Assembly (NCBI GenBank): GCA_030599585.1
Contig: JAUVNS010000003.1
Coordinates: forward strand, 1-64,000
Source: Promethearchaeota archaeon
GTDB taxonomy: Archaea; Asgardarchaeota; Lokiarchaeia; Sigyniarchaeales; SOKP01
Direction of reading: 5' to 3'
Length of the DNA: 64,000 nt
Notes under the pieces: model-generated
The model's input: only the letters and a program-made list of their open reading frames with translations
What the model was told of the DNA's origin: nothing
The model's database searches: none
Part shown: one piece after another, positions 12,413-16,194 of the stretch
Layout of the letters: each line of letters begins with the position of its first letter
Position numbering within the stretch: the stretch's first letter is position 1
Position numbers and translations under genes: made by a program

Positions 12413-13030
12413 ATGAGTAAAGTGAAAAAAGACATTAAACTTTTTAATAAGTGGTCATTTGAAAACATTGAAGTTAAAGATTGGACATTAGAAAACTATA
12501 TTAATCTGAGACCGGTTATAATTCCTCATACCGCAGGAAGACATGAGCATAAACGCTTTTGGAAAACTACTAAAATATCTGTTATTGAGCGTTTTGTAAA
12601 CAGATTACTAGCACCCGGTTTTATTGGCAGTAAAATTAAAGGACATAAAAGTTCATATAGCTCTGGCAAAAAAAGTAAACTCTTAAGGAACTTAGAAAAT
12701 GCTTTTACTTTATTGGAATTAAACACAGGTAAAAATCCAATTCAAGTGCTAATTGACGCAATATGTAACACGGCACCTAGAGAGGAAACGACACGTATTG
12801 CTATGGGCGGAATCAGTTATGCGTCTGCTGTAGATGTTTCGCCACAGCGTCGAGTAGATTTAGCAATTAAGTATTTAGTCCAGGCAATTGGTTCAAGTTC
12901 TCACTCAAGCGAAAGACCTTTTGCTGCAAATGTCTCTAGGGAGTTAGCTTTAGCCTCTCAAGACAGCATTGAATCCAAAGCAATAAAAAGAAAAGACGAA
13001 GTAGAACGAATTGCCGTTTCTGCTCGTTAA
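12413..13030 (+). CDS. rps7: 30S ribosomal protein S7 (uS7)
   Basis: NPIQVLIDAI, PREETTRI, VDVSPQRRVDLA, ERIAVSAR. Confidence 0.97.
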   Translation: MSKVKKDIKLFNKWSFENIEVKDWTLENYINLRPVIIPHTAGRHEHKRFWKTTKISVIERFVNRLLAPGFIGSKIKGHKSSYSSGKKSKLLRNLENAFTLLELNTGKNPIQVLIDAICNTAPREETTRIAMGGISYASAVDVSPQRRVDLAIKYLVQAIGSSSHSSERPFAANVSRELALASQDSIESKAIKRKDEVERIAVSAR

Positions 13031-13265
13031 GAAAAATCAAATCTAGTGATCGGATTCAAATCTAGTTATTATTTTTCTTTATTTACTTAAACTAATTTAT
13101 TTATTAAACTGACTAGGTTAGATTATCAAAAGTTAATCGTGCGATATCACCCACATAATATCAAATCTTACTTTGGGTTAATAAAATTCCTAATTTTTAT
13201 ATATCTCTTAAGTATATTATTTAGTTAAGCAAAATTAATGTTTTTTATGATGACTTAAACTTAAA

Positions 13266-15263
13266 TTGAATTCCGACAAAAATCACGATGTTTTAGAAAA
13301 GCACCTTAAAACATTAGGTCAAAAGATAAGAATTGATATTTTAAAGAAATTAAGTCTAAGCAGTAATCCTTTACCCTATTCTATACTTCAAAAGGAAGTT
13401 TTAGGAACTAATCCAAATTCAGTCAATTTTTCATTTCACTTAAAAACATTGAAAAACAGCGACTTGATGTACACTACCGACGAAGGATATGTTTTGAGTG
13501 CTTTAGGGAGGCAGATTCTAAAGAATATTGTCTCTATTGAAAAAATTCTAAATGATAAAAACAAAACAATAATGATTAGAACCTCTAAATATTCAAAGGA
13601 ACCATTTGATTCGAGTAAAATTAAAAATTATCTAATCAAGGAAGGCCAAGTAGGTGAGCACTTAGCAAAACAGATTGCAAAAGAAGTTGAAGAACGCTTA
13701 TCTAAAACGAATATAACATATTTAACAGCTCCTTTAATGAGGGAATACATAAATGGTATTCTATTGGAAAATGGCCAAGAAGAGATTAGACATAGGTTGA
13801 CTCGATTAGGGACTCCTCCTTATGAAGTTTCTAGGTATTTTGATAACAGTAGAATTAATCCTGAACTACTTCTTTCTAAACTAGGATCAGAGGTTTCAGA
13901 GCAATATTTATTGCTAAATTTGCTTCCAAAGAATTTAGCGGACATGTATCTGTCTGGAGAATTAGTTTTACTGAACTTAAATTACTGGAGTTTAAGACCA
14001 TTGGGCTTTTATATAGACTCAAATTCAATTATATCTTATCTATCAAAACGAAAATTAGTAGACATTAATAATTTAGACAAACCAATTGAATTGGTTAAAC
14101 TAAGTTCTTACTTTTTTGATGTACTGGATAAGATAAAGCCTTATGTATCTGAAGATATTCTGCTAGGAAATTTTTCGGACTTTTTAATCAAAATTATTAG
14201 TTCGAACGAAAATTCAGAGGCTCTTATTAATTTTCTAAATTCAAAAATATTGAATCTTTCAAATAGAATCTACGACCAAAAGCCTCATCTCTCTTTAGAA
14301 GTTTCTTCTTCAAACCTATTTGAAGATTCTCGCTCCCTAAATTTGAATATTCCATCTATCTCTTATTTTTTTGGTAAATTATTTAACCAGATTAATCAAA
14401 ATGATGGATTTATTTGTCCTATGATTGTATTTGATTACTCAATACTACCTGATGATAAGGCTGGATATGAATTTTTAAGAGAAACCATAAATTCCCCTCA
14501 TAGTAACGATTTAATATTCTCTTTAAATAATAACCTAAGTTTACTAAATTCTACTTTGATAAACGTGAATAAGAATAAGACCAAAGAAGAAATTAAATGT
14601 AAGGTTGTGTTAGATAAGATTTTAGTAAATTTACATAATATTGCTAATAATTCTAAGCAGAACGATTCTTTATTTTTTGATCAAGTTCAAGAAAAGCTTA
14701 ATTCAGTATTTGAAATTTTTGCTTATAAAAAAGATTTAATGAATAGAAGGTTATCTACTTCAAAGGAATTGAATAATATTATATCTGATTTCAATAAACC
14801 TGAATCCTATAATTGGATAGATGACTCATTAAAATCAGTTAGTTTTTTCGGATTAAACGAAGCCATTAAAACTCATTGCGGAATCGAGATCGATAGGATA
14901 GAAAACAGCGAATCGTTTGCTTATAATCTACTAATGTTTATGAAAGATATAATTAACGAAATTAACCAAGACCAAAACGAAAATTATATATTTACTCAAC
15001 CTCATAACGGCAATTATCTTTCTAAAAACTGGTGCAGTAATATGGAAGATGTAGGTAATGGTCCTAACAAATATTGCATAGACATGGTACGGGGGAATTC
15101 AAAATTATCGTTAGAGAAAAGAGTTCAGATTTATAAAAATTTTGAAGGTATTGTTGATGGAGGGAGTGTTTTTACATTTAATGTAAATAACAAACCCATA
15201 AAAGAATTAATGGCACAATTATCTTATTCAAAAGTGAGCATGTTTCAATTAAAAATAGAATAA
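13266..15263 (+). CDS. wHTH + ATP-cone + degenerate class III ribonucleotide reductase (NrdD-like) protein
   Basis: N-terminal ArsR-like RIDILKKL...FSFHLKTLK; ATP cone IRTSKYSKEPFDSSKI...LTAPLMREYIN; NrdD-like TRLGTPPYEV, GLNEAIK, DGGSVF; no C-terminal Zn ribbon or RxxGY loop. Confidence 0.75.
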   Translation: MNSDKNHDVLEKHLKTLGQKIRIDILKKLSLSSNPLPYSILQKEVLGTNPNSVNFSFHLKTLKNSDLMYTTDEGYVLSALGRQILKNIVSIEKILNDKNKTIMIRTSKYSKEPFDSSKIKNYLIKEGQVGEHLAKQIAKEVEERLSKTNITYLTAPLMREYINGILLENGQEEIRHRLTRLGTPPYEVSRYFDNSRINPELLLSKLGSEVSEQYLLLNLLPKNLADMYLSGELVLLNLNYWSLRPLGFYIDSNSIISYLSKRKLVDINNLDKPIELVKLSSYFFDVLDKIKPYVSEDILLGNFSDFLIKIISSNENSEALINFLNSKILNLSNRIYDQKPHLSLEVSSSNLFEDSRSLNLNIPSISYFFGKLFNQINQNDGFICPMIVFDYSILPDDKAGYEFLRETINSPHSNDLIFSLNNNLSLLNSTLINVNKNKTKEEIKCKVVLDKILVNLHNIANNSKQNDSLFFDQVQEKLNSVFEIFAYKKDLMNRRLSTSKELNNIISDFNKPESYNWIDDSLKSVSFFGLNEAIKTHCGIEIDRIENSESFAYNLLMFMKDIINEINQDQNENYIFTQPHNGNYLSKNWCSNMEDVGNGPNKYCIDMVRGNSKLSLEKRVQIYKNFEGIVDGGSVFTFNVNNKPIKELMAQLSYSKVSMFQLKIE

Positions 15264-15270
15264 TGGAAGA

Positions 15271-16194
15271 TTAGTCAGATAATAACTCCGCTAAGATTGC
15301 CATTCTCATAGGTATTCCATAATATGCTTGTTTGAAATAAATTGATTTAGGAGAACCATCGATTTCAGGTGAAATTTCTGTAATCCTTGGTAATGGATGC
15401 ATAATTTTGAATTCGTCTTTTGTTTCTTTTAAGTCCTTTTTCCCGAATACATAGAAATCTTTAACTTTTTCATATTCTTCAATATCAGCAAATCTTTCTT
15501 TCTGAATTCTTGTGACATAGAGAATATCTAAAATATTTAGTATATCTCTATATTTTTCTATTTCTTTGTATTTTACTTGTCGTTGTTGTAAGAAGTCTTT
15601 GTCTCTTTTTCGCAACATCAAATCTTTAGGGCTAATAAAATAGATATTTGCGTTATAATTTGAAAGCAATATTGACAATGAATGGACTGTTCTTCCAAAT
15701 TTCAGATCCCCCATTATACCAATATTTAAACCGTCTAAACTATGGCCCTCTTCAGTAATTGTTAATAAGTCTAATAAAGCTTGAGTCGGATGCTCACCAC
15801 TTCCCGAACCAGCATTTATGACAGGTATTTTTGCGAACTTTGCTGCCAGCCTGGCTGCTCCTTCTAGATTATGTCTCATTACGATACCGTCGCAATAGTT
15901 TTCTACAGTACGAATTGTGTCAGCAATACTTTCTCCTTTTTTTATTGATGAAACATCACCAGTATGAAATCCTATAATATTTCCTCCTAAGCGATACATC
16001 GCAGATTCAAAACTTAAGCGAGTTCTCGTGGATGGTTCAAAAAACAGAGTAGCTAAAATCTTACCTCTCAGAATTTCTGAGTTCTTTTTGTTGAGCATTA
16101 CATTCTTAGCTTTTTTTAAGATGTAATCTATATCCTCTCGAGTAAAGTCTTTTGCGGATATGATACCCTCTCTAAATTTCTCTTTAAAAGACAT
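15271..16194 (-). CDS. pyrB: Aspartate carbamoyltransferase catalytic subunit
   Basis: FFEPSTRTRLSF, HPTQALLD, GDLKFGRTVHS, MHPLPR. Confidence 0.97.
   Translation of the reverse strand: MSFKEKFREGIISAKDFTREDIDYILKKAKNVMLNKKNSEILRGKILATLFFEPSTRTRLSFESAMYRLGGNIIGFHTGDVSSIKKGESIADTIRTVENYCDGIVMRHNLEGAARLAAKFAKIPVINAGSGSGEHPTQALLDLLTITEEGHSLDGLNIGIMGDLKFGRTVHSLSILLSNYNANIYFISPKDLMLRKRDKDFLQQRQVKYKEIEKYRDILNILDILYVTRIQKERFADIEEYEKVKDFYVFGKKDLKETKDEFKIMHPLPRITEISPEIDGSPKSIYFKQAYYGIPMRMAILAELLSD

Follow-up and report, generated by a model that had tools for sequence, protein, structure and literature searches.

The subject of this text is a single gene, here called X, on the first 64,000 nucleotides (nt) of contig JAUVNS010000003.1 of the Promethearchaeota assembly GCA_030599585.1, a stretch that is referred to as the window. 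X lies between the ribosomal protein gene rps7 and the gene pyrB, and its product consists of a winged helix-turn-helix of the ArsR/SmtB type, an ATP-cone and the α/β barrel of the class III ribonucleotide reductase (RNR) NrdD, from which the catalytic parts have been lost. The initial annotation, made from the letters of the window alone, had described an intact open reading frame of 665 codons with a clean TAA stop, placed right after rps7 and converging on pyrB, and had assigned to its product an ArsR-like winged helix at the N-terminus, an ATP-cone behind it and an NrdD-like barrel that ends before the zinc (Zn) ribbon and the glycyl radical loop and has no finger-loop cysteine. The frame is found at the same position, both neighbours are confirmed, and each of the domain assignments is borne out by the profile and structure comparisons given below.

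The winged helix is recognized by the Pfam profile DUF7347, which matches residues 14-88 of X with an E value of 1.5e-9 and 38.4 bits against a cut-off of 27.6, and within its putative recognition helix His58 is invariant. The ATP-cone profile PF03477 matches residues 102-174 with 25.6 bits when the protein is searched, where the cut-off is 25.8, and with 30.2 bits in a six-frame search of the genome. Residues Arg105, Glu112, Phe114, Ile119, Arg159, Arg175/His176 and Arg180 of the cone are at least 90% conserved among 67 family members, real NrdDs included. The barrel is matched by the Pfam profile NRDD over residues 452-578, corresponding to profile positions 282-412 of 562, with an E value of 2e-12. 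The start codon of X stands at the same aligned position in the orthologues, as TTG, GTG or ATG; TTG or GTG is used in 16 of the 24 aligned loci and ATG in the other 8, and a Shine-Dalgarno sequence is not obvious.

What has been lost becomes clear when X is aligned with the canonical NrdD of the same genome (P0122). The finger loop SQCCRKF, with the thiyl cysteine of the enzyme, falls in a deletion of X; the bottom-face cysteine, Cys181, aligns with Gly247; and X terminates about 10 residues short of the CPHC...CPQC Zn ribbon and the RVTGYY of NrdD. X thus has no glycyl radical motif RxxGY and, like all short forms of its family, no C-terminal CxxC...CxxC ribbon, while the long forms found in other lineages retain the ribbon. 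The score of X with the NrdD equivalog model TIGR02487 is 41.1 bits, to be compared with a cut-off of 326.35. Judged by its sequence, X cannot carry out radical chemistry and cannot be an RNR. Landmarks of the old pocket are kept in dead and live members of the family alike, with Asn455 invariant and Gly632-Gly633 and Lys488 conserved to at least 90%.

The predicted structure agrees with this description. The AlphaFold model of full-length X, built on 67 relatives, has a predicted local distance difference test score (pLDDT) of 83 and a predicted template modelling score (pTM) of 0.76, and in a Foldseek search it matches class III RNRs only, with an E value of 4e-19 to 8p2c. When the model is compared with 8p27 by VIA-align, 442 residues are aligned with a Z score of 29.2 and a root-mean-square deviation of 4.0, and the α/β barrel fold of RNRs and glycyl-radical enzymes is present. 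Residues 100-665 span residues 1-674 of P. copri NrdD, that is, the cone and the barrel as far as the point where the glycyl-radical domain begins, and residues 100-180 align with the cones of the P. copri and S. thermophilus enzymes. An ArsR-type winged helix is also predicted: the N-terminal 100 residues, folded alone, give a pLDDT of 94 with four helices (α1-4), a β hairpin and a fifth helix (α5), and their best structural matches are ArsR/SmtB repressors, i.e., ArsR (6j05), NolR in complex with DNA (4omy, template modelling (TM) score 0.71) and CzrA (TM 0.72). The TM scores of the domain to ArsR, NolR, CzrA and CadC lie in the range 0.66-0.75, and its Foldseek E values, only about 5e-3, are as weak as is expected for so small a domain.

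When residues 186-665 are predicted as a homodimer, the interface score derived from predicted aligned errors (ipSAE) is 0.58, compared with 0.00 for the best of three controls; in the calibration of this score, 20 of 30 solved homomers attained that mark, as did 1 of 23 monomers. The runs have at least 74% of their contacts in common, the pLDDT of the partner is at least 75, and the predicted interface is made up of residues 188-219, 239-244, 285-293 and 494-502. Because NrdD dimers have already been solved, this result may merely reflect the likeness of X to NrdD.

The gene is kept by selection. An orthologue with 38-100% identity is present in all 68 genomes of the window's family, among 301 genomes of the phylum that were searched, and the frame is intact, with a length of about 645-709 amino acids, in all 24 loci that were fetched. 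A search of 5.8 billion proteins gave 472 relatives, and those with identities of 57-100% are almost all 659-671 amino acids long and come from metagenome-assembled genomes (MAGs) of Lokiarchaeota/Promethearchaeota. The ratio of nonsynonymous to synonymous substitution rates (dN/dS), calculated against four close orthologues, is 0.18-0.27 for X as a whole. It is lowest, at 0.04-0.07, in residues 181-260, which form the helices of the NrdD dimer and specificity-site region and contain, with helix 199-219, the most constrained stretch of the protein; the cone (0.07-0.14) and the winged helix (0.09-0.13) come next. For the remaining barrel the ratio is 0.22-0.36, and the least constrained part is the barrel middle (0.24-0.36).

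The loss of catalysis extends far beyond the window's family. An exhaustive search of representative proteins gave 695 matches, among them long forms of 700-800 amino acids that have the same winged helix and cone and have kept the Zn ribbon. In every aligned winged-helix form the finger-loop cysteine (motif CCR/GCR) is replaced, and the glycine of RxxGY is mostly gone, this motif being retained in only 2 of about 74 winged-helix forms from named genomes. From this family-wide loss of catalytic residues it follows that the X family is a family of pseudoenzymes, and that X is not just one truncated copy of an active enzyme. With one genome per GTDB species, a survey of the architecture gave at least 595 X-like loci, mostly in Bathyarchaeia and otherwise in Methanomethylicia/Methanosuratincola, other Thermoproteota, Culexmicrobium and the Jord-, Odin-, Baldr- and Promethearchaeota. 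A maximum-likelihood tree separates the real NrdDs from all winged-helix forms with a branch support of 100%, and the short Lokiarchaeial forms, to which X belongs, make up one clade (97%) nested among the long forms, which means that the loss of the Zn ribbon is secondary and took place in an already dead protein. The proposals of the initial annotation that X is a pseudo-enzyme and a maintained truncation rather than a gene in decay are therefore upheld, by the catalytic loss throughout the family, by the intact orthologues in 68 of 68 family genomes under purifying selection (dN/dS around 0.2) and by the working RNRs encoded elsewhere in the genome.

Two other groups of forms appeared in the same comparisons. 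A second dead paralogue of NrdD, Y, of about 600 amino acids, occurs in other genomes of the family (for example L074:601-2409 and L075:545-2359, in G008:C89 and G210:C3), but none was found in the genome to which X belongs. Y has a cone and a barrel and no winged helix; its finger loop is deleted, its bottom-face cysteine is changed to serine, its C-terminal boundary is the same as that of X, and in the tree it is nested within the real NrdDs as the sister of the Lokiarchaeial enzyme (100% support). The proteins P0166, P0200, P0186 and P0214 (839-888 amino acids) are the sister group of the short forms; they have large insertions and lack the Zn ribbon, and where RxxGY would stand their C-terminal tail has the conserved motif Y[RN]xxGC[YF]KPL.

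Table 1. Features of the X locus, with positions in the window.
Feature	Position	Strand	Description
rps7	12413..13030	+	Upstream neighbour of X; last gene of the rpoA-L30e-nusA-rps12-rps7 cluster
Box A (ATATCACCyACATATTATC)	13143..13163	+	Conserved in the promoters of 21/24 orthologues; the TATA box follows about 50 nt downstream
Predicted transcription factor B recognition element (BRE)/TATA box of X (AAATTCCTAATTTTTATATAT region)	13187..13204	+	Conserved block; putative promoter role, from the archaeal consensus
Box B (TATATTATTTAGTTAAGCA)	13213..13233	+	Conserved block over the predicted transcription start; putative role
Gene X	13266..15263	+	665 amino acids, TTG start, TAA stop; winged helix and ATP-cone, followed by an NrdD barrel without catalytic function
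ArsR/SmtB-like winged helix-turn-helix of X (DUF7347)	13266..13559	+	Residues 1-98; putative recognition helix, residues 55-64
CCGACAAAAAT element	13273..13283	+	Inside codons 3-6 of X; also in the nrdD and nrdJ 5' leaders of the genome
ATP-cone of X	13569..13805	+	Residues 102-180
NrdD-like α/β barrel of X	13806..15260	+	Residues 181-665; helix 199-219 is predicted dimer interface
pyrB (aspartate carbamoyltransferase catalytic chain)	15271..16194	-	Convergent neighbour of X; 7 nt between stop codons

The genome in which X occurs has functional RNRs of its own. Its assembly comprises 4.85 Mb on 52 contigs, with an estimated completeness of 100% and an estimated contamination of 8.9%. The canonical NrdD, encoded on contig C32, has 712 amino acids with a cone, an intact finger loop, Zn ribbon and glycyl radical motif, and its activase NrdG is encoded on contig C20, in accordance with the remark in the initial annotation that no activase gene lies near X. 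A class II (B12-type) RNR, NrdJ, which also has an ATP-cone, is encoded at C26:263859-266111 (L161:2360-4615; PF17975, 1e-33; PF21995, 1e-15); the gene was missed by a genome search with PF02867 and detected by way of its cone. The bacterial-type regulator NrdR (TIGR00244) has no match anywhere in the genome, X included.

Some further observations concern these genes. The 5' leader of nrdD is long, with about 150 nt between TATA box and ATG, and strongly conserved across genera (C32, L001:3619-4025), and 3' of nrdD there is a small gene for a MazG-like nucleoside triphosphate pyrophosphohydrolase (L001:1122-1436). In several relatives the class II gene lies in open frames of 1000-1660 amino acids that match in pieces, which suggests inteins. 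At C26:155282-155518, a 994-amino-acid open frame has a weak match to the NRDD profile and is adjoined by a gene resembling a radical S-adenosylmethionine activase (C26:153093-153758); together they are probably a separate glycyl-radical enzyme with its activase.

Conserved blocks upstream of X were identified in an alignment of 24 such regions (Table 1). In a whole-genome scan with a weight matrix, Box A has a single copy, with 30.4 bits for the site at X and 17.6 bits for the next best site, and since it occurs once in the genome it is specific to X. Box A was considered as the operator of a regulon and rejected, as it is present upstream of X only and is not common to nrd or pyr genes.

A different pattern is displayed by the element CCGAYAAAA, which lies inside the reading frame of X, where CCGACAAA(A) fills codons 3-6 in 22 of the 24 orthologues. 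In all 22 element-bearing orthologues codon 3 is NCC and codon 4 is GAC, codons that are used with frequencies of 11.9% and 18.2%, respectively, elsewhere in the same genes, and the CCGAC of the two codons is invariant although residue 3 may be Ser, Ala or Thr. When synonymous positions are fixed while the encoded residue varies, the constraint is on the nucleotides and not on the protein. The element recurs in the leader of the unlinked nrdD, as CCGACAAAA(A/T)T in 20 of 21 orthologues, and in the leader of nrdJ, as (G)CCGAYAAAAT in 8 of 21, the window's own genome having the variant CCTCGATAAAAT. Measured from the TATA box, it lies almost equally far downstream in all three genes, 74-78 nt for X in 13 loci (76 nt in 7 of them), 70 nt for nrdD in 14 loci and 71 nt for nrdJ in 5 of 8, while its distance from the start codon differs, being +7 for X, about -77 for nrdD and about -48 for nrdJ. 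The degenerate motif has 175 copies on both strands of the 4.85 Mb, or about 1.8e-5 per position, and at so low a density matching positions in two further functionally linked promoters are not expected by chance. The element common to X, nrdD and nrdJ across genera fits what an autoregulated RNR regulon would look like, and both this element and the single-copy Box A are new here.

Exact CCGACAAAA sites number 43 in the whole genome, compared with a median of 30 for permuted words, and 20 of the 43 are intergenic. A genome-wide search with the 9-mer gave no further regulon member that could be named. Where other copies are preceded by a TATA box at about 70 nt, no gene is obvious downstream. 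Several of the intergenic sites belong to repeated, mobile-element-like loci on contigs C12, C51 and C32. In these loci (C12:2851-3225, C51:5002-5378 and C32:201658) CCGACAAAAATTG stands 33 nt downstream of a TATA-like box, and the loci on C12 and C51 have a second conserved block in common, GGAAGACG...GATTAC[GA]CCGACAAAA. The loci resemble copies of an element that is either mobile or codes for an RNA.

The position of X among other genes is also conserved. In all 24 loci of the window's family, which represent nine genera, X converges on pyrB, and rps7 is upstream in most of them; over the family the identity of X falls to 38%, and that of pyrB is 67-92% in the fetched loci. Of 14 long-form loci in other Asgard families, 8 have pyrB next to X, in orientations that vary (convergent, pyrB before X, or X before pyrB), and in one locus X stands between pyrB and a canonical nrdD. 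In other archaeal classes, neighbourhoods were counted in the best 80 of the at least 595 loci: in 39 of these 80, pyrB is downstream of X, mostly convergent and 50-150 nt apart, and pyrI is divergent from pyrB in 28 of the 39; in 14 of the 80, a canonical nrdD with intact RVTGYY/RITGYY follows X in tandem. Divergent pyrB and pyrI beside X, in place of the usual pyrBI operon, are seen in Bathyarchaeia, Odin- and Baldrarchaeota (many loci in L082-L159). In the X-nrdD spacer of six Bathyarchaeial loci (L094, L100, L102, L113, L120 and L132) there is, by eye, a coding-like stretch that resembles a small glutaredoxin/NrdH-like frame, and if this frame is real the cluster would read X-grx-nrdD, followed by convergent pyrB. 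In the window's genome pyrI is unlinked (C11:167932-168207), and rpl44e faces pyrB. That X might substitute for the regulatory chain of aspartate carbamoyltransferase (ATCase) was considered and rejected, since PyrI is encoded elsewhere in the genome.

Taken together, these results make it probable that X is an NrdD-derived pseudoenzyme dimer that senses nucleotides, binds DNA and controls the genes of deoxyribonucleoside triphosphate (dNTP) supply along with its own gene, where the binding of ligand and of DNA is what we infer. Such a protein would have retained the ATP-cone, the helices of the dimer and specificity region and the barrel, and given up the radical chemistry. It would most likely form an NrdD-like dimer that presents two winged helices of the ArsR type, read the state of the adenine nucleotides through its cone and perhaps that of the dNTPs through the old specificity or active sites, and turn the reading into DNA binding at the genes for deoxyribonucleotide supply and at X itself. 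The best candidate for its operator in this lineage is CCGAYAAAA, about 45 nt downstream of the predicted transcription starts of X, nrdD and nrdJ, at which X could act as an autoregulated repressor of the roadblock type, presumably in this direction of regulation, and so do the job that NrdR does in bacteria. Support for the idea of an NrdR analogue, already put forward in the initial annotation, is circumstantial and comes from the lack of an NrdR match in a genome estimated to be 100% complete, the linkage to nrdD and pyrB and the common element. Since the linkage to pyrB is very old, the synthesis of pyrimidines may well belong to the same circuit. A wider version, which we hold only tentatively, is that the supply of DNA precursors in Asgard and TACK archaea has its missing master regulator in X and the related long forms. 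In this version a dead RNR dimer would sense ATP/dATP through the cone and the balance of the dNTPs through the retained specificity or active sites, and act on a CCGAYAAAA operator about 45 nt into the transcribed parts of nrdD, nrdJ and X itself, with pyrB/pyrI coupled to the same circuit.

A number of observations weigh against a nucleotide-sensing repressor. The cone of X lacks the first lysine of the usual Lys-Arg pair (Ile104-Arg105), a residue that is also missing from the genome's own NrdD, and the Pfam score of the cone on the X protein sits at the cut-off. The transcription starts are predictions from TATA boxes only, and at about +45 the element is further downstream of them than archaeal repressors mostly bind. 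Of the sequence data, the one run labelled 'RNA-Seq' is probably DNA, and a metatranscriptome from that sample yielded nothing, an outcome that has no bearing on expression. Neither the pyrB promoters of the window's family nor the region upstream of the nrdG operon has the element, and the X orthologues of one genus, g4, have neither the element nor Box A. A search for motifs upstream of the long forms of other classes gave none that they have in common; the enriched k-mers appeared to stem from an upstream tRNA gene. The RNR genes, furthermore, sit on contigs other than that of X in an assembly with an estimated contamination of 8.9%; they are nonetheless found in 35 of 41 genomes of the window's family. 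Finally, because the element is inside the coding sequence of X, a role at the RNA level, or recognition by another factor, is equally compatible with its position.

This last point leads to the strongest of the alternatives, which we nevertheless regard as unlikely: that CCGAYAAAA acts in RNA or is read by some other factor, so that X would be an RNA-binding regulator of translation or a plain member of the regulon. The element would be present in the X mRNA right after the start codon and in the transcribed leaders of nrdD and nrdJ, at a fixed position relative to the predicted 5' end; many X orthologues have the weak starts TTG or GTG without obvious Shine-Dalgarno sequence; and winged helices can bind RNA. 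Against it, the distance of the element from the start codon varies widely while the distance from the TATA box is constant. Rfam gave nothing credible for the upstream region of X or the leader of nrdD, no conserved hairpin was found, and ArsR-type folds typically bind DNA.

Somewhat less likely still is a regulator at the protein level, which would form a heterodimer with NrdD or dock on NrdJ or ATCase to tune enzyme activity, and whose winged helix would serve protein contacts or localisation. In its favour, no part of X is more constrained than the helices of the dimer and specificity-site region, which have 31% identity to the genome's NrdD; the predicted interface resembles that of NrdD, X is persistently found beside nrdD and pyrB, and the dead paralogue Y of sister genomes does without a winged helix. 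The identity between X and NrdD is only about 27-31%, however, and extends over parts of the length; purifying selection on the winged helix is strong, and its recognition helix is of the ArsR type, with a His-Leu motif that does not vary; and the element common to X, nrdD and nrdJ is left without explanation.

It is very improbable that the old active site still performs some non-radical catalysis or processes nucleotides. The conservation of Asn455, Gly632-Gly633 and Lys488 in dead and live members means that the pocket may still hold a nucleotide, but both cysteines and the glycyl domain are gone, the barrel middle is the least constrained region, and we know of no RNR-fold enzyme that works without a radical. 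That X is a decaying or mis-assembled nrdD pseudogene, as its truncation relative to NrdD and the pipeline label 'anaerobic ribonucleoside-triphosphate reductase' on its relatives might suggest, is refuted by the intact frame in 24 of 24 loci, the presence in 68 of 68 genomes, the dN/dS values and the conserved synteny and promoter.

The interest of a nucleotide-sensing, DNA-binding pseudoenzyme lies in the fact that the control of RNR genes in archaea is largely unknown, because NrdR is rare there, and that the X family is a concrete and widespread candidate for this role, with at least 595 species in Bathyarchaeia, Methanomethylicia and a number of Asgard lineages, among which are the closest relatives of eukaryotes in culture. 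If the reading is correct, an essential radical enzyme has been recycled as a sensor by keeping its allosteric sites and discarding its chemistry, and on the wider, tentative version X would be the first transcription factor made from a whole RNR scaffold, possibly also the first to sense all four dNTPs. CCGAYAAAA, as a putative operator, lends itself to immediate testing. A full-text search of the literature gave no paper on DUF7347 or on a dead NrdD fused to a helix-turn-helix, and in public annotation the relatives of X are either hypothetical proteins or active enzymes. One consequence of the reductase label is that the capacity of MAGs for anaerobic dNTP synthesis can be overstated.

When X is compared with class III RNRs (NrdD of T4, T. 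maritima, P. copri and S. thermophilus; PF13597, TIGR02487), it is seen to be homologous to them over the cone, the dimer helices and the 10-stranded barrel, with the same archaeal-type cone motif (xRTxx...PFD..KI) and a predicted dimer of the same kind, and to differ from them by the absence of the thiyl cysteine, bottom-face cysteine, Zn ribbon and glycyl radical loop and by the N-terminal winged helix that has been added. How the cone signals in NrdD itself has been described (PMC11226230, PMC12662201). With the ArsR/SmtB repressors (ArsR 6j05, NolR 4omy, CzrA 1r1u) the winged helix of X has fold, topology and the recognition-helix motif xHLKxL in common; its sequence score is below the cut-off of that family (NF033788, 16.2 bits against 55), metal-site cysteines are not evident, and it is fused to a large sensor body, whereas the repressors stand alone as dimers of 100 amino acids. 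By its N-terminal domain X is a member of Pfam DUF7347 (PF24038), an entry that gives no function. NrdR, the bacterial repressor of RNR operons, is made up of a Zn ribbon and an ATP-cone, and its mechanism has been described (PMC9110341, PMC12176259). X resembles NrdR in that a DNA-binding domain, predicted in the case of X, is fused to an ATP-cone, and in its ties to RNR genes, which consist of gene neighbourhood and of a shared cis-element found at the gene for the regulator as well. The DNA-binding domains are unrelated, an ArsR-like winged helix in X and a Zn ribbon in NrdR; X carries in addition the whole dead body of an RNR, about 480 amino acids; and where NrdR has paired boxes in the promoter, the candidate site of X is CCGAYAAAA, downstream of the predicted start. 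X would in this comparison be an analogue of NrdR, and is homologous to it in the cone only.

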